Shown here piece after piece: positions 7,469 through 36,729 of a stretch of 48,090 bases of DNA; positions within the stretch are counted from its first letter, which is position 1; each line of letters begins with the position of its first letter. A program made the position numbers and the translations under genes. The stretch is from positions 1 to 48,090 of the forward strand of contig DATJGV010000220.1 of assembly GCA_035494575.1 (NCBI GenBank), in the 5' to 3' direction. The stretch comes from Pyrinomonadaceae bacterium. Lineage in GTDB: Bacteria > Acidobacteriota > Blastocatellia > Pyrinomonadales > Pyrinomonadaceae. A model generated the notes under the pieces. The model was not told the origin of the DNA. It ran no database searches and was given only the letters and a program-made list of their open reading frames with translations.

Positions 7469-10400
7469 ATGATTAAACATGACTCAAAACGAAGTTCGTT
7501 CTTCATGTGGGCCGTAATGTTGGTCACCTTGTTTGCGGGCCAAGGTGTTTTTGCACAAACCGGAACCTCCTCCATAAGCGGAACCGTTAAGGACGCGCAA
7601 GGGAACGTTGCGGTTGGAGCGACAGTCACACTCTCAAACCCTGAAACCAACTTCAACCGGACACAGGTAACCAATGGCGAAGGAAATTTTTCGTTTTTGG
7701 GAATCCCGCCGGACACTTATTCGCTCGAGGTGAACGCGTCCGGCTTCAAGAAAGCCGTTTTAAAGGACGTTCAGGCCCTTGTTGCAAAGCCAACTGAGGT
7801 CAACGTTCAAATCGAAGTCGGCAGCGTTTCCGAATCCGTTACGGTTTCGGCTGAGGGAAGTGAAGCTCTCATTAACACGCAGGACGCATCTTTGGGCAAC
7901 AATTTCCAGTCGCTCCAGATCACTCAACTCCCGCTCGAAGCTCGCGATGTTACATCTCTCTTAACGCTTCAGCCGGGATCAACCCGCGAGGGCTATGTTG
8001 CCGGAGCGCGCGCAGATCAGTCAAACGTGACACTTGATGGCGTCGATATCAACGAGGCCCAGACAAATCAGGTCGGATCGCCGAAAGGTGGCGTCGGTGC
8101 CGACTCGCTTAACGGTTTCTCGGACTCGCCAACGGCGGGTACGGTTCTCAGGCTTAATGGCGAAGCAGTTGAAGAATTTCGTGTAACTACAACAAATCCG
8201 AACGCGTCGATGGGAAGGTCGTCCGGTGCTCAGATCTCATTGATCACTAAAACCGGCACTAATAGTTGGCGTGGCGCGGCCTTCCTGTATAACCGTGATA
8301 CCGCATTCACCGCGAATGATTTTTTCAACAATCGGAGCGGCATCGAACGTCCGAATCTTAAGCGAAACGTTTATGGCGGTGCAGTCGGAGGACCGATCAT
8401 CAAGGACCGCGCGTTCTTCTTTTATAGTTATGAAGGCCGCCGGGATCGCAGTCAGGCAACATTTCTGTCACGCGTCCCCTTGGCAAGCATGGGCCGGGGC
8501 GAACTACGCTACTATAACGACGATGGCGGGGTAACAACTCTCACCTCAGCGGATATGGCAACGATATTTCCTGATCTGAACGGGGTTAATCCTGCGGCCG
8601 TTTCCGCCTTAGCGGCTGCTGCTGCAAAATATCCTGCGAACGATTTTTCAATCGGCGATGGATTGAACGTTGCGGGTTACAGGTTTAACGCTCCGCTGCC
8701 GATTGATCTGAATTCACACGTGGCACGCCTCGATTTCAATTTAACGTCAAAACAGCAGGCGTACGTCCGCTTCCAGTATCAGCAAGACGACATCGGCGGT
8801 AGCCGTTTGTTTCCGGACACTCCATCACAAGATACGTGGTCGCACCCGCTCGGGCTTGTCGTCGGCCATAATTGGACGATTGGCAATAACCTTATTAACA
8901 CGTTCAGGTACGGCCTGACGAGAGAAGCCTTTACAGCTGGAGGGGATTCGTCCAAGAACGAGATTTATTTCCGAAATATCTTCTTTCCCGTTAACGACTC
9001 GCGCGAAACATCTCGCAAGACCCCGGTTCAGAATATTGTTGACGATGTGTCGTGGATCAAGGGTAGCCATACCTGGCAGTTCGGTACGAATATCCGGATC
9101 ATCCGTAACCACCGCGTAAGCTACGCGAATGCGTTCGATACTGCGTACACGAACCCGTCCGGCTGGGAAGACAGTGGCAGCCCGATAACCGACGCCATCA
9201 ATGAATTTTCGGTTATTGGTTCGGACAGCGATGAGTCCGATGTTCGCAGTGCGGCGACTGCGCTTTTAGGCCGCCTGACAGCGTTTACCGGCCGCTTTAC
9301 ATTCGACGGTGACGGAAATCTTCTACCGGCAGGAGCGCCCAGCGTACGCGATTTTGCAACGGAAGAGTATGACTTTTATGCTCAAGACATCTGGAAAATA
9401 AAATCGAACCTGACACTCACGGCTGGCCTTCGATATAGCCTGAGCCGTCCTGTTTATGAAAAGAACGGTCTCGAGGCAAGGCCTAACATTTCCCTATCCG
9501 AATTTTTCCGCCGCAGGCTTGCTGGCGCTGCATCGGGTGTTCCCTACAATGATCCCCTGACGGTTGAGCTGTCTGGTCCGGCAAATGGCAAAGCTCCACT
9601 TTACGACTGGGACACTAATAATTTCCAGCCGCGTATCGCGCTTGCATGGTCGCCAAATTTCAAACAGGGATTCCTGGCCACTCTCTTTGGCAAGAATAGC
9701 GAATCGGTTTTCCGCGGTGGTTTTGGCATCTCGAACGACTACTACGGCCAGCAGTTAGCGGTTGCGTTCGACTTGAACAATAAGCTGGGCTTTGCTTCGC
9801 AGGTAACGCTGGCTGCGGGAACATGCAATACCACAACCGTAATTTGTCCGTTATTTACCTCTTTTTCACAGGATGTGAGAGGTTTGCTTCCCGATTTCGG
9901 CTTGCCTGTTCCGGGATCGTTATCGTTCCCTCAAATGGCTCCCGTGGACAGCAGACGCCGTATCGAATCGTCAATCGATTCCGAGATCAAGGCTCCGATC
10001 CATTATAGCTGGAACTTTACATACGAAAGGACACTTCCGAAGGGATTTGTTGTTTCTGCTTCGTATGTCGGACGGGCCGCGCGTAACCTCCTGGCGTCGC
10101 GGGACGTTGCCGCTCTGAATAATCTTGTCGATACCAAATCCGGTATGGATTGGTACACAGCGGCCGGAATGTTGGAGGACTACCGCCGACAATATTCGCC
10201 TACAATAGATCCGAGCCTTCCTAGATCCGTACGAGATCCGTTATATCAGACCGCAATAAGATCTGTTCCGGCGATTCCGTACTTCGAGAATTTGTTCGCG
10301 AGTGTTCCCGGTTTCGCTGGCTGGATGTTAGGAGGCAGCCGGGCATCGATGGCCCAAAATGCAACTCAGGCTGTTTTTGGTGACGCATTGATCTTTAACG

Positions 10401-30495: not shown

Positions 30496-31272
30496 ATGCC
30501 AAGAGAAAAATCACAAACTCATAAACTGAAGATCGTTCCCGAACCGCCGCCGGCGATCGAGGACGCGTCGGACCTTTGCCCGAAATGTTTCGGCACCGGA
30601 CTCGAGATCGTGCCCGGCAAAGGCGCTCGGCCGTGCGAATGTCGAAAAAAACTGGCTCACACGAACCATCTCGAAAAAATGCGGCTGCCCCGCCGCTATA
30701 CCGAATGCCATTTTCATAACTACCGTCCGCAAAATCCTTCGCAGGAACGAGCTCTTTCGTTCTCGACAAAACTAGCGATGGAATATCCGGCGGTCGAACG
30801 CGGATTGCTATTTTCCGGAACGGTCGGGGTCGGCAAAACGCATCTTGCGGTTTCTATTTTAAAGGGCTTGACGGAACGCGGATTTACGTGCCTGTTTTAC
30901 GAATTTGGCGCGTTGCTAAAAGAGATTCAAGATTCCTACAACGCCAACACGCAAACTTCTGAATTGCGTGTGCTCGCTCCGGTTTTTGACGCCGATGTTT
31001 TGGTTCTCGACGAACTCGGCGCGTCAAAACCAACCGACTGGGTGCGTGACACGATGGCTCATATCATCAACACCCGTTATAACGACCGAAAAGTGACGAT
31101 CTTTACGACCAATTACCTCGATGACCGTACTAGTGCCCGCGAAGAAACTCTCGAAGACCGCATCGGCGTCCGTCTCAGGTCAAGACTTTTTGAAATGTGC
31201 AAGACAGTTTTTATTGCCGGCGAAGATTTTCGAAAAACGTTCGACCGGAGTTCGGCCGCGAAAAGCCGATAG
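30496..31272 (+). CDS. DnaC/DnaI/IstB-like AAA+ ATPase with N-terminal zinc ribbon
   Basis: [16 protein letters not shown] (four Cys), Walker [12 protein letters not shown], Walker B VLVLDELG and TTNY sensor. No IstA-type transposase is adjacent. Confidence 0.78.
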
Positions 31273-31414
31273 TTTGATCCCCCGCGTAATGATCCGCTAA
31301 AACTTCCTCATGTAAAACTTTGTTAAAATATTTTCAACAAAAGTATTCACTTTTCTGGAAAAATAGGTATAATGTGTCTAGCAGGCTCCCTCGCCCGTCT
31401 TGCATACCACCATT

Positions 31415-33061
31415 ATGCTTTCAACAAATCAGGTCCTGAACCAGGGACGTTATCGAATAATACACCACGTTGGGCCAAGCGATAATTCAGGCCTTTACCA
31501 AGCGTACGACACCGTAAGCAACGCGAATGTTGTGCTCAAGGAGACCGAGGGCAGCGCCGTAAGCACGGCGACGAAGGCACTGTCGGACCTCAAGCATAAT
31601 TCGCTGCTGAACGTGCGGGATTATTTTTCCGAGTTGGACCGGCAGTATATCGTGATCGAATCGACCGACGGCCAGGACCTGGCCGAATTGCTGGCGGGTA
31701 ACGGCAAAGCTCCGGCTGTCTCTGATGTTGTGAAGTGGGCGGACAATCTCCTTGATGCTTTGAATTATCTCCACACGCACCGTCCGCCGGTCCTTCACGG
31801 TGACATAAAGCCTGAAAACATCAGGCTCACGTCGTCATTTGAGATAAAGCTTCTCTCGCCTGCAGTTTCGCGTGACCGCGACGACGAATTTGCGGTTTCC
31901 GCTATGGCCGATACCGCAAGTCTGCCTTATCGGTCGCTCGAACAGCTTTGGGAAGGGCTGGACGCAGCTTCCAGAAAAGTGATCGCGAACAGTTTTGACG
32001 AGGCATCCGAAGAGATACTTCGCGAGGAACCAGATGAGAGGGCCGATCTTTACGCGCTTGCGGCAACGTTGTATCACGCGCTGACAAAGGTCGCTCCGGC
32101 CGATGCGATGGCGCGAACACTCGAGATACTTGACGGCAACGATGATCCGATGCAGCCCGCGTATCAGCTCGACGGCAAAATCCCCAAAGCTGTTTCCGAC
32201 GTTATTATGAAGGCGCTTGAGATCAGGCGCGAAAACAGGTTTGATTCGGCATCTGCCATGCATGCGGCGCTGAGATCCGCCGCCGGTGACATGGCCAAGT
32301 CGGCCAAAAACGAAGCCGCGTCCGCCGCACAGGCCGCCGAGCAAAAGCGTCTGGAAGAGCAGCGGAAGGCTGAAGAAGCTAAAAAACTAGCCGCCGAAGC
32401 TGAGGAAAAACAGCTGGCGGAAACCAGGGCCGAGCAGAAAAGACAAAAGCTCGAGGCCGAGCAAAAGCTGCGTGACGAGATCGCCGCCCAGGAAAAAGCA
32501 GCGGCGCAGCAAGCCGCCCCCGTAAAAGAAGACCTCCTCGAACTGCCCGAAGGTGTAGATACCGAGCCGGTGCAGGAACTCGACGGAGCAGACATTCTGG
32601 CGGAAGCGTTCGACGAAAAACCGAAGGCAAAAGCCGCATCTGGGTCATATTCGTCCACCGACTATAATCCGATGTTCTCGGAACCGACCTCCGGCGGCGG
32701 AATGTCGAAAATGCCGATCATCATCGGAGCCGCGGTCGTGGTACTTGCCGTGATCATCGGTGGATGGATGTTCATGGGGTCATCGGGCGGCAGCCAGGCG
32801 ACGCCGTCACAAACGACGCTTTCGAGCGATGCCGCGAAAACTGCTCCCGCCGTAACGGAAGAGGCTCCGCAAACGACTGCTCCCGCAGTTACTGAGCAAG
32901 CTCCGACCGAGACCGAATCAAAGCCTTCGGCCGACCAACCGGCGAAAAATGAAGCCGTAAAATCTCAGGCAAAGGCGAAGAAGGAAGAAAAAACCGAGGC
33001 CAAACCCACCGCCACACCGAAAAAGGCCGTAACGGCTGACGACATCATGCATGACAACTAA
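31415..33061 (+). CDS. Degenerate Hanks-type kinase-fold protein (predicted pseudokinase) with Lys/Glu/Ala coiled coil, one TM helix and a low-complexity tail
   Basis: The track start at 31400 is TTG; ATG is at 31415. HGDIKPENI replaces HRD. The DFG position reads KLLSPAVS, so the Mg-binding Asp is missing. The G-loop is degenerate (VGPSDNSGLY). DLYALAATLYHALT is retained. The coiled coil reads EQKRLEEQRKAEEAKKLAAEAEEKQLAE. TM helix is MPIIIGAAVVVLAVIIGGWMFM. Confidence 0.72.
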   Translation: MLSTNQVLNQGRYRIIHHVGPSDNSGLYQAYDTVSNANVVLKETEGSAVSTATKALSDLKHNSLLNVRDYFSELDRQYIVIESTDGQDLAELLAGNGKAPAVSDVVKWADNLLDALNYLHTHRPPVLHGDIKPENIRLTSSFEIKLLSPAVSRDRDDEFAVSAMADTASLPYRSLEQLWEGLDAASRKVIANSFDEASEEILREEPDERADLYALAATLYHALTKVAPADAMARTLEILDGNDDPMQPAYQLDGKIPKAVSDVIMKALEIRRENRFDSASAMHAALRSAAGDMAKSAKNEAASAAQAAEQKRLEEQRKAEEAKKLAAEAEEKQLAETRAEQKRQKLEAEQKLRDEIAAQEKAAAQQAAPVKEDLLELPEGVDTEPVQELDGADILAEAFDEKPKAKAASGSYSSTDYNPMFSEPTSGGGMSKMPIIIGAAVVVLAVIIGGWMFMGSSGGSQATPSQTTLSSDAAKTAPAVTEEAPQTTAPAVTEQAPTETESKPSADQPAKNEAVKSQAKAKKEEKTEAKPTATPKKAVTADDIMHDN

Positions 33062-34430: not shown

Positions 34431-35288
34431 TTAGTAATTCCCGGCAACAATATTCGATTTGACACCGCTGGCTTCCTGGGCGATCTTGACGCCGACGCTC
34501 GCGCCGATACGAGTCGCACCAGCTTCGAACATTGCGCGAGCATCGTCGATTCCTTTTACGCCGCCTGATGCCTTAACGCCGAGCGCTCTGCCAACGGTTC
34601 GCCGCATCAATGCAACGTCCTCGACGGTCGCTCCGCCCTTCGAAAACCCGGTAGATGTTTTAACAAAATCGGCGCCGGCATTTTTAGCCGCGAGGCTAGC
34701 CCGAACCTTTTCCTCGTCGGTCAATAAAGCGGTTTCGATAATGACTTTGCACAAAACGTCGTTCTCGTGAGCTGCATCGGCCACCGCTCGGATATCGTCT
34801 TCAACCAAACAATCATCGCCCGATTTCAGCGCGCCGATGTTGATTACCATATCGACCTCGCGAGCACCGTTAAAGATCGCACGCCGCGCTTCGTAAGCTT
34901 TAACATCCGGCAGCGTCGCTCCGAGAGGAAATCCGATCACGGTGCAGACTGGAACATCGCTCCCTCTCAAAAATTCCGCGGCCGTTTTCACCCAGGAAGG
35001 GTTTACACACACGGACGCAAAACCGAACTGAGCCGCCTCGTCGCACAATTTTTTGATATCCGCCTCGGATGCCTCCGGTTTTAATAAAGTATGGTCGATG
35101 AGTGATGCCCAATCGTGCGCCGTCGCGGTCGATCCGAGCACGATGCCTATGCGTTCGGCTCCGGCGTCAACGATGCGTTCGACATCTGCACGACAAAACG
35201 TGGGGCATTGATCTTCGCCGCCGAGTTTTTCGAGAACGAGGTCGGTTATCTGTTCGACAAGTCTTTCATAATTGCCGTTTTGCTGCAT
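34431..35288 (-). CDS. deoC: Deoxyribose-phosphate aldolase (class I DERA) with a ~58-aa N-terminal extension
   Basis: Motifs [48 protein letters not shown] (Schiff-base Lys context) and VKASGGV. The extension begins [24 protein letters not shown]. Confidence 0.9.
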
Positions 35289-35305
35289 AAGGTTCGGCTA
35301 TTTTA

Positions 35306-36073
35306 TCACTTTTTATATTGAGTTTCGATTGTGTTGATCTTGTTGACGCGTTTCTTGTGACGCTCTTCGGTCAGCTCGGTCGAGATCCACGCTTCGACAA
35401 TTTGTTTGATCTCGTCGATCGAATTTTGCCCGCTGCCAAGCGTTAGAACATTGGCACCATTATGTTCGCGCGAGTTTTTTGCAAGTGCAGCATTATAACA
35501 TGCTGCCGCTCGAACTCCCGGAACTTTGTTAGCCGCCATCGCGCTGCCGATTCCCGCACCGTCGACGATGATCCCGACATCGACGTGGCCTTCGCCAACC
35601 GATCTTGCAACTGCGTGCGCAAAATCAGGATAGTCCACGGCGTCGGTCGAATTGGTTCCAAAATCTCGTACCTGCACGCCGAGCCCGTTCAAGAACTGCT
35701 TCAACTCTTCCTTTACGTGAAATCCGCCATGATCGGCACCGATCGCTACTGACTTTACCTTTATCGAATCGTGTCGAGACTGTTTTCTTATTAATTGAAG
35801 ACGTCTTTCAGCAACAATATCGCTTGCAAGCGGTGTAAATTTGGCGTTGTCAGCGACGCGAACCCGTGCTCCTTCATCGAGGCCGCGCAGATCGTCCTCG
35901 GTGATAAGCTGTTTGGAAGATTCGTCGCGGTCCCATTCACGGGCAAATTTTTCCTGAAGCGAATTTACGACGACGTGGTCCGGCTCCGAGTCGGTTCCGG
36001 CGGGTACGTTTTTCAACACCTCGCGAACCAGAGCTTGAACGCGCTCGCGGGTTTCCTTGGTTTGATCGGACAT
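35306..36073 (-). CDS. rpiB: Ribose-5-phosphate isomerase B (RpiB/LacA/LacB family) with a ~107-aa N-terminal extension
   Basis: The core starts at VAIGADHGGFHVKEEL and includes GIIVDGAGIGSAMAANK..RAAAC..SREHNGANVLTLG. The extension begins MSDQTKETRERVQALVREVLKNV. The gene ends 18 nt upstream of deoC, so the two are likely an operon. Confidence 0.9.
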   Translation of the reverse strand: MSDQTKETRERVQALVREVLKNVPAGTDSEPDHVVVNSLQEKFAREWDRDESSKQLITEDDLRGLDEGARVRVADNAKFTPLASDIVAERRLQLIRKQSRHDSIKVKSVAIGADHGGFHVKEELKQFLNGLGVQVRDFGTNSTDAVDYPDFAHAVARSVGEGHVDVGIIVDGAGIGSAMAANKVPGVRAAACYNAALAKNSREHNGANVLTLGSGQNSIDEIKQIVEAWISTELTEERHKKRVNKINTIETQYKK

Positions 36074-36153
36074 AAATGCGAATGCGACCCTTGTAAAAAA
36101 GCCGCTGGTTGAATAGTATTTCTAAAAGTCTGCTCAATCAAATCAAAAACGCT

Positions 36154-36729
36154 ATGTCAGCCGAATCTCTAAAGACCATTTCCACGGAGTTCACCAACTC
36201 TAATCTCGAATTGCTCTACACCGCCGACGAAATACGTACCCGCGTCGCCGAACTGGGAGCCCAGATCACGCGTGAATACGCCAACGGCGATCTCGTTCTG
36301 GTCGGCGTGCTGAAAGGCTCATGCGTGTTTCTCGCTGACCTGATGCGCGAGATTGATCTGCCCTTGCACATCGATTTCATGGCCGTCTCAAGCTATAAGG
36401 ACGGCACCGTAAGCACCGGCGATGTTGAAATTTTGAAGGACCTCACAAACCCGATCCGCGGCAAGGACGTGATCGTTGTCGAAGACATAATCGACACAGG
36501 CCTGACATTGTTCCGCTTAATGGAAATACTGGGTTCGCGCGGTGCAAACTCGCTAAAGATCGCGACTTTTCTGGACAAACCCGATCCCCGCGTTAAAACA
36601 GAACTGGCGATCGATTATTGCGGTTTTCAGATCCCTAACAAATTCGTTGTCGGTTATGGCCTCGATGCAGCGGGAAGGTATCGGAATCTGCCGTTTATTG
36701 CGGTCGTTAAGAATCCATCAGAAGCCTAG
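36154..36729 (+). CDS. hpt: Hypoxanthine-guanine phosphoribosyltransferase
   Basis: The track start at 36109 is TTG; ATG is at 36154. Motifs LVGVLKGSCVFLADL, DFMAVSSY, the PRPP loop VIVVEDIIDTGLTL, and FVVGYGLD. Confidence 0.9.
   Translation: MSAESLKTISTEFTNSNLELLYTADEIRTRVAELGAQITREYANGDLVLVGVLKGSCVFLADLMREIDLPLHIDFMAVSSYKDGTVSTGDVEILKDLTNPIRGKDVIVVEDIIDTGLTLFRLMEILGSRGANSLKIATFLDKPDPRVKTELAIDYCGFQIPNKFVVGYGLDAAGRYRNLPFIAVVKNPSEA

Follow-up and report, generated by a model that had tools for sequence, protein, structure and literature searches.

Does a gene pair embedded among housekeeping genes of a soil acidobacterium encode the cargo of a bacterial microcompartment (BMC) whose shell lies elsewhere in the genome? 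The question is raised by rpiB and deoC in a 48,090-nt stretch of DNA from a Pyrinomonadaceae bacterium (contig DATJGV010000220.1 of assembly GCA_035494575.1; this whole stretch is called the window). A sequence-only reading of the window had proposed that both products carry N-terminal extensions resembling encapsulation peptides (EPs), as would befit cargo of the sugar-phosphate-utilising (SPU) class of BMC. Both open reading frames (ORFs) were found where that reading had placed them:

34431..35288, minus strand: deoC, 285 aa; residues 1-59 form the extension, followed by a DERA core (DERA, deoxyribose-5-phosphate aldolase; ORF call, TIGR00126)
35306..36073, minus strand: rpiB-like gene, 255 aa; residues 1-107 form the extension, followed by an RpiB/LacAB core (ORF call, PF02502)

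Because only 17 nt separate rpiB from the downstream deoC, the two are probably co-transcribed, as a two-gene operon on one transcript. Domain boundaries and solved structures agree that the additional N-termini, of ~58 aa on DeoC and ~107 aa on RpiB, are absent from typical homologues, as had been claimed. The DeoC core begins at residue 60-64 in Pfam and NCBIfam models (DERA core, residues 60-271), and solved DERA structures align only from residue 54-63. The RpiB core begins at residue 107-109 (core span 107-251; PF02502 match 109-246), and solved RpiB structures align only from residue 100-109; neither set of structures contains the extension. Among the matches listed, more than 120 protein clusters contain full-length DeoC, at identities of at least 87%, and more than 120 contain full-length RpiB, extension included, at 68-100% identity; full-length RpiB is found in 80 species. 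By source name, the extension-bearing homologues belong to Pyrinomonadaceae, Blastocatellia or Acidobacteriota. When species-representative genomes were scanned, 80 loci emerged, every one from subdivision-4 Acidobacteria, and 79 of them cover the RpiB extension from residue 1-16.

Evidence for a cargo origin of the extensions comes from genes that do neighbor a shell. DERA and RPI define the SPU class, as the sequence-only reading had correctly stated (PMC8217296, PMC11585597). A metagenome scan with a BMC-H alignment provided a reference set of 80 shell-containing loci, about two dozen of which are SPU loci with an in-locus DERA, usually together with RPI and an aldehyde dehydrogenase (AldDh). 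Profile hidden Markov models (HMMs) were built from the extensions of shell-adjacent DERA and RPI only, with core residues excluded, and compared to 469 six-frame segments. The DERA-extension HMM matches window DeoC at residues ~7-53 (E = 9e-9), and the RPI-extension HMM matches window RpiB at residues ~10-98 (E = 7e-9); the second-best match of the DERA-extension HMM is the EP helix of RpiB. The proposed cargo-type character thus goes beyond likeness of pattern, with both extensions homologous to those of DERA and RPI inside shell-containing SPU loci.

This relationship agrees with what is described for SPU cargo. All SPU DERAs are reported to have an N-terminal extension of ~70 residues, with an amphipathic helix and further elements, that non-BMC DERAs lack, and SPU RPIs to begin with a typical EP and continue into a linker of ~75 residues; DERA and RPI associate in a roughly 1:1 complex (PMC11585597). 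Window DeoC has a helix-bearing N-terminal extension such as is expected of SPU DERA (about 60-70 aa) and is absent from non-BMC DERA, and window RpiB is a pfam02502 protein encoded beside DERA, with an EP helix and a long linker. Every sequence criterion places DeoC and RpiB in the SPU cargo pair. As this arrangement is already on record for SPU BMCs (Dwyer, Sutter and Kerfeld 2024, PMC11585597), the extensions as such are no novelty.

Window DeoC builds its extension from three parts, namely a helix at residues 6-22, of which the earlier reading had quoted residues 7-22; a short linker containing Cys28 and Cys32; and a further conserved element, which runs into the core motif IDHT:

35223..35273, minus strand: DeoC EP-like amphipathic helix, residues 6-22; under purifying selection and aligned with the helices of in-locus SPU DERAs
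35133..35222, minus strand: residues 23-52, DeoC linker (Cys28, Cys32) with second conserved element; homology to Cys-rich linker and 'V..VV.AGA.R' element of SPU DERAs

Shell-adjacent SPU DERAs share this layout of helix, Cys-rich linker and 'V..VV.AGA.R' element ahead of IDHT, and their helices read, for example, VERLVERITREVLLLL (locus L149) and LERIIEQITRQVLILV (L139). Among shell-adjacent SPU DERA extensions, 9 of 17 have a 4-Cys motif, C-x1-4-C-x2-4-C-x3-C, in the linker, as do 14 of 76 DeoCs of Pyrinomonadaceae type (loci L119, L137, L140, L141, L146, L147, L149, L151, L159 and L075). It is degenerate in window DeoC, with only Cys28 and Cys32 left (35193-35222, residues 23-32). The motif, which is not mentioned in the available portion of PMC11585597, may be a metal or redox site. 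Another variation on the pair is seen in five metagenomic SPU loci (L115, L119, L122, L126 and L130), where single ORFs of 428-546 aa fuse RPI to DERA and keep the DERA helix between the domains, fitting the SPU3 chimera known from the literature.

The RpiB extension has four parts: a helix, a variable linker, a conserved module of ~50 residues and a short basic linker. The first three are placed as follows, with model confidence given as the AlphaFold2 predicted local distance difference test (pLDDT):

36011..36064, minus strand: RpiB EP-like amphipathic helix, residues 4-21, TKETRERVQALVREVLKN; AlphaFold2, purifying selection, and alignment with in-locus SPU RPI helices
35942..36010, minus strand: RpiB variable linker, residues 22-44; least conserved, with indels and low complexity in relatives, and pLDDT <50 at residues 23-40
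35774..35941, minus strand: RpiB alpha/beta mini-domain, residues 45-100, RDESSKQLITEDDLRGLDEGARVRVADNAKFTPLASDIVAERRLQLI; AlphaFold2, many invariant positions, HMM E = 7e-9

In the AlphaFold2 model, residues 4-21 form a helix, residues 22-36 are disordered and residues 49-97 fold into a module. The helix segment first noticed from the sequence, RERVQALVREVLKNV, is present at residues 9-23, and the helix consensus among relatives is TRDRVRALVREVL. The linker is much longer in divergent relatives. The module that follows it has the consensus RDES.K.ITE.DLRGL..GA.VRV.ENA.FTPLA.DI..E..IELI and a pLDDT of ~85 in the full model. Modelled alone, the module takes the same fold at a pLDDT of 74. A fold search with the whole RpiB protein is dominated by the RpiB core. 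No relatives of the module were found in Pfam, PDB sequences or PDB folds, the best module-only fold match in the PDB having E = 0.79. PDB sequence matches that would make the module ankyrin-like were judged to be chance, and a faint match was seen to NCBIfam NF011595, the N-terminus of the ethanolamine-utilisation adenosyltransferase EutT (E = 0.083).

The distribution of the module is narrow. When the RpiB extension alone was run through phmmer exhaustively against 1.84 billion representative proteins, it matched only 62 clusters, and all 17 that were inspected are RpiB proteins or RpiB fragments. The module is also carried by shell-adjacent SPU RPIs of L139, L147 and L149, which are built of EP helix, linker and the same module, e.g., TVTEADVLAMPRGGRLTVAVGALVTPLARQAASERRVQL; it was found on no non-RPI protein in about 100 BMC loci. 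A second module of ~40 aa had indeed been recognized from the sequence, and its description as a module of unknown role can now be replaced by that of a predicted folded mini-domain common to some genuine SPU RPIs. It belongs to the extension of some genuine SPU RPIs and is no unrelated add-on. As modelled, a folded mini-domain within the RPI extension is a previously undescribed, new element.

What the helices contribute as helices is less distinctive. Their hydrophobic moments are 0.61 and 0.66, inside the range of known EPs (0.43-0.76), but shuffles of the same extensions reach the observed moments 12% and 25% of the time, and amphipathicity by itself is thus no higher than chance and proves nothing alone. 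Conservation is more telling. Across 72-79 distinct species, both extensions resemble the cores in being much more variable at the third position of codons than at the first two, with variation at codon positions 1/2/3 of 0.75/0.19/1.42 bits in the DeoC helix and 0.71/0.47/1.69 bits in the RpiB helix. Purifying selection acts on the helices and on the RpiB module in these species, and the linkers are the least conserved segments of both extensions. AlphaFold2, the moments and the conservation profile together give the arrangement of an EP, with a terminal amphipathic helix of ~15-20 aa and a poorly conserved linker before the domain. The codon-position pattern and full-length conservation indicate that the extensions are translated and the start codons right.

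The two cores differ in how well they have kept their active sites. DeoC scores 288 bits against the TIGR00126 equivalog (cut-off 117), and aligning it with solved DERA structures shows the motifs EVDMVIN, KVIIE and FVKTSTGF preserved, with the catalytic Asp and both Lys; it is apparently an active deoxyribose-5-phosphate aldolase. The RpiB core is 47% identical to 3HE8, and the GIVICGTGLG of that structure corresponds to GIIVDGAGIG in the window, so that Cys is replaced by Asp171 and the catalytic Thr by Ala173:

35561..35563, minus strand: codon of Asp171, at the catalytic Cys position of RpiB (alignment to 3HE8)

Asp171 is invariant across 21 relatives, and the in-locus RPI of SPU locus L126 also has Asp at this position. 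SPU RPIs are described as having lost the catalytic Cys, with Asp in its place, and as having little isomerase activity (PMC11585597), and window RpiB shows the same substitution.

Where these proteins depart from known SPU cargo is in their surroundings. The window contained no BMC-H, BMC-P, PduL, acylating AldDh or class II aldolase by tblastn with shell, vertex, PduL, EutE and FucA queries, and Pfam scans of its other large ORFs, leaving aside the kinase ORF at 31400-33061 and a few overlapping ORFs, gave no BMC component. These searches bear out the statement of the sequence-only reading that no shell gene, PduL or aldehyde dehydrogenase is visible in the window. We extended the comparison to 83 related loci (1.17 Mb in total), comprising the 80 species representatives and three metagenome contigs and including loci from complete genomes that carry the operon (OY970352.1, OZ244585.1 and CAVTYF010000001.1). 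Adjacent to rpiB are deoC in 77 and hpt in 79 of them, and neither an acylating AldDh of the EutE/PduP type nor a class II aldolase was found in the window or the 83 loci. The cargo genes are not clustered with BMC-H or BMC-P within 12 ORFs of a shell gene and no EP-bearing acylating AldDh lies in the locus; the SPU definition therefore fails at the level of the locus. The term satellite cargo operon, which had been suggested, does not fit, as the satellite loci of the BMC catalog contain shell genes and this operon has none; it is better called a shell-distal cargo operon. The earlier interpretation is partly supported: the kinship of the extensions to SPU cargo stands, and the satellite label and the description of the module have been corrected. 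What is unusual is location: the lineage-wide, shell-distal placement of the SPU pair in the core genome is a new element.

If there is a shell, the most plausible is that of the ACI-type locus. ACI BMCs, known from 125 loci, are exclusive to Acidobacteria, mainly of subdivisions 4 and 6; their main locus encodes a class II aldolase that ends in an EP, together with one BMC-H and three BMC-P, and their AldDh is always encoded elsewhere (PMC8217296). The window lineage belongs to subdivision 4 (Pyrinomonadaceae/Blastocatellia), and a Blastocatellia metagenome-assembled genome (MAG), AA13, is listed as host of an ACI main locus in the same survey. In addition, pfam01791/02502 is found in FRAG5 and FRAG8 loci alongside an AldDh most closely related to that of ACI, and HO-BMC genomes encode, at a distal site, a pfam01791 protein whose extension is EP-like (PMC8217296). 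The distal HO-BMC gene, the separation of the ACI AldDh from its locus and the AldDh kinship with FRAG5/FRAG8 are precedents for encoding in trans.

The ACI main loci that we recovered consist of the aldolase-EP, BMC-H with a VGWEKIG motif and three BMC-P, often directly upstream of ruvAB, and none of them contains DERA, RPI or AldDh. The position upstream of ruvA-ruvB recurs in several Acidobacteria lineages (L157, L169-L176, L187 and L189-L198), which suggests that the ACI shell locus has a stable place in the core genome; in one ACI lineage, a PF05635 gene (23S rRNA-intervening-sequence protein) stands between the BMC-P genes. The L190-type family of ACI loci, also found in NCBI MAGs QHWV01 and DAIRHC01, has 55.6% GC and a tetranucleotide distance of 3.1-3.4 to several Pyrinomonadaceae genomes, where calibration puts same-genome distances at 2.3-3.7 and the between-genome mean is 6.5. 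This family is compositionally Pyrinomonadaceae-like, which is suggestive only.

In the model that we propose, rpiB-deoC would be the signature cargo pair of an SPU-type BMC. DeoC would split deoxyribose 5-phosphate into glyceraldehyde 3-phosphate and acetaldehyde, and the RpiB-like protein, with its canonical Cys and Thr lost, would most likely be a structural partner that binds the aldolase and aids packaging. By analogy to the characterised SPU6 system, DeoC and RpiB may form a complex, their N-terminal helices on flexible linkers may drive cargo aggregation and shell binding, as helices of this kind do in characterised BMCs, and, inside the shell, DERA would release acetaldehyde to an encapsulated AldDh and glyceraldehyde 3-phosphate would leave.

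We lean modestly toward the view that DeoC and RpiB are still encapsulated in a shell encoded in trans, with the ACI type as the candidate. Several observations weigh against it. The DeoC core, from residue 60, is ~70% identical to an ordinary solved DERA (PDB 8QPS), so only the extension ties DeoC to BMCs, and an Asp-variant RpiB might still be catalytic, as the Mycobacterium tuberculosis RpiB is active with Glu at this position (cited in PMC11585597). In none of the 83 related loci is a BMC-H, BMC-P or PduL gene found closer than 10 kb to rpiB, and with no shell genes nearby the shell must be encoded elsewhere or be absent. The surroundings are those of housekeeping genes and not of a BMC island (rplU-rpmA-obg-nadD-rsfS ... 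hpt / rpiB-deoC / dnaC-like, tetR, rarA, recA), and the window shares this conserved synteny of its relatives. The class II aldolase of ACI is already a plausible signature enzyme for it. Named members of ACI-type BMC-H clusters (13 of 20) are Bryobacteraceae/Solibacter, Vicinamibacterales, Terriglobales and generic Acidobacteriota, with one Verrucomicrobiae and one Acidimicrobiia label, and no Pyrinomonadaceae or Blastocatellia label is among those listed; this absence is weak evidence, as the sampling extended to at most 120 clusters and 40 members of each. ACI contigs and rpiB-deoC contigs had no contig, assembly or sample in common. In other comparisons, no exact RpiB or DeoC proteins were common to the species-representative loci and the listed homologues, an orthologue comparison meant to place the ACI contigs taxonomically had no informative genes in common, and our literature search found neither a link of ACI, Blastocatellia or Pyrinomonadaceae to DERA/RPI nor a report of microcompartments in these lineages.

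Much of the same evidence could be read as a system without a shell, in which the helices and the RpiB module, as relics or repurposed parts, hold DeoC and RpiB in a cytosolic complex or condensate. Such a complex may channel or confine acetaldehyde-producing deoxyribose-phosphate catabolism. The lack of shell genes in the window and within 10 kb of rpiB in its relatives fits this explanation, as does the core-genome site beside hpt, to which one subclade adds a phosphopentomutase-like gene, giving the look of ordinary nucleoside salvage or catabolism; no Pyrinomonadaceae-labelled shell protein was seen in the clusters sampled, and purifying selection indicates that some function is kept without specifying which kind. 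We nonetheless consider it rather unlikely. We know of no native system in which a shell-independent function of EPs has been demonstrated, the missing label concerns only the matches listed, and the L190-type ACI family is Pyrinomonadaceae-like in composition. ACI BMCs, moreover, are reported mainly from subdivisions 4 and 6, a Blastocatellia MAG included (PMC8217296).

A still less probable explanation, which we regard as a poor fit, is that the extensions have nothing to do with BMCs and serve regulation, redox or metal sensing by the Cys linker, or oligomerisation, their EP likeness being generic. It draws on the chance-level amphipathicity, on the 4-Cys motif in many homologous DERA linkers and on a folded RpiB module without known relatives, and it has to contend with specific homology to the extensions of shell-adjacent genes (E about 1e-8), with an RpiB extension found only on RpiB proteins in the clusters inspected (17 of 62) and with the lack of extensions on solved non-BMC DERAs and RpiBs. 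That the extensions are annotation artefacts, untranslated because the true starts lie downstream, is effectively refuted. Automated annotation often misses or misplaces such starts (PMC11585597), and one JGI call of DeoC began upstream at TTG, but the third-codon-position pattern of the extensions is the same as that of the cores across 72-79 species, both proteins are conserved at full length, and the RpiB module is folded in the model (pLDDT ~85). Downstream starts, which the sequence-only reading had named as fatal to its proposal, are thereby excluded. Encapsulation in a shell encoded in trans remains the reading that we prefer. More narrowly, and tentatively, we suggest that rpiB-deoC is the trans-encoded signature cargo of ACI or else that its EPs have been selected for shell-independent co-assembly, in either case with an undescribed mini-domain. 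The possible link of the pair to the uncharacterised ACI organelle would be a new element.

The neighborhood of the pair offers further observations. The rest of the window consists of housekeeping genes, namely recA, rarA, hpt, kinase and peptidase genes and those of an RND efflux system, and the divergent neighbor of rpiB belongs to the context and not to the cargo pair:

36109..36729, plus strand: hpt, a phosphoribosyltransferase (PF00156)

An AAA+ gene of IstB_IS21/DnaA-like type (30496-31272, plus strand) is near deoC in L084-L088 too, adjoining it in L084-L086, and because of this recurrence in other genomes it is probably a resident DnaC-like gene and not a fragment of an IS21 element. 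A divergent subclade with a long RpiB linker has, immediately upstream of hpt, a phosphopentomutase-like gene of family PF01676 (L200 1-734, L075 about 7785-9269, and also L061-L063, L066, L070, L071, L076, L077, L079 and L083), making a deoB-hpt-rpiB-deoC nucleoside-catabolism neighborhood; rpiB and deoC are separated in L075 and L200 by an inserted 221-aa gene of unknown function. An aldehyde dehydrogenase ~5 kb from rpiB-deoC in L001 (15749-17200, minus strand, 483 aa) was set aside as an ordinary non-acylating enzyme with no EP, unrelated to the BMC core.

Few BMC types are as widespread as the SPU microcompartments, whose characterisation has only just begun. BMC surveys seek cargo within about 12 genes of a shell gene, so that shell-distal cargo is invisible to them, and the present case shows that the SPU signature pair can occupy a housekeeping neighborhood across a whole family of abundant soil Acidobacteria. 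If the shell is encoded elsewhere, the pair would give the uncharacterised ACI organelle, or another BMC of the lineage, a concrete and testable function, and would make the case for cargo searches based on extensions and not just on proximity. A true ACI link would make ACI an organelle for processing deoxyribose phosphate (DNA detritus), its parts distributed over at least three core-genome sites. If no shell exists, the pair would be a natural example of targeting peptides selected for another role, such as shell-independent co-assembly. In practice, the extensions are likely to render the enzymes insoluble in heterologous expression, as reported for the SPU6 DERA.

Among known systems, housekeeping DeoC and RpiB are the most ordinary point of comparison: their cores are like those of the window, and they lack the 58- and 107-residue extensions, with housekeeping RpiB keeping the catalytic Cys and Thr where the window has Asp171 and Ala173. 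Classical EPs (PduD, PduP, EutC and EutE) resemble the window helices in having an N-terminal amphipathic helix of ~15-18 residues, a poorly conserved linker and a comparable hydrophobic moment, but share no detectable sequence homology with them, and targeting by the latter is a prediction. The distal pfam01791 protein of HO genomes (PMC8217296) is likewise a DERA-type aldolase; its N-terminus is EP-like, its gene lies apart from the shell locus, and encapsulation in trans has been proposed for it. It belongs to Myxobacteria, with the shell locus known in the same genome and no partner RPI described, whereas here the shell is a candidate one. ACI (PMC8217296) shares with the pair the host phylum and, per that paper, the subdivision, and has a scattered AldDh of a clade tied to pfam01791/02502 in FRAG5/FRAG8; its main loci were recovered without DERA, RPI and AldDh, and its class II aldolase-EP and shell genes are not in the window.

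The closest counterpart is the SPU cargo pair itself (Axen 2014; Sutter 2021, PMC8217296; PMC11585597), which consists of the same families in the same order, rpiB then deoC. SPU DERA has the layout of window DeoC, with an amphipathic helix, a Cys-containing linker and a second conserved element, and SPU RPI is like window RpiB in its N-terminal EP helix, long linker and Asp for the catalytic Cys. SPU loci encode the pair together with BMC-H, three BMC-P, BMC-T and an acylating AldDh, none of which is found here within 10-35 kb (window and 83 loci), and the window DERA linker has two fewer of the four Cys. The RPI 'linker' differs as well: in PMC11585597, this region of SPU RPI is described as less conserved and unstructured, whereas in the window it is predicted to hold a well-folded, conserved mini-domain.

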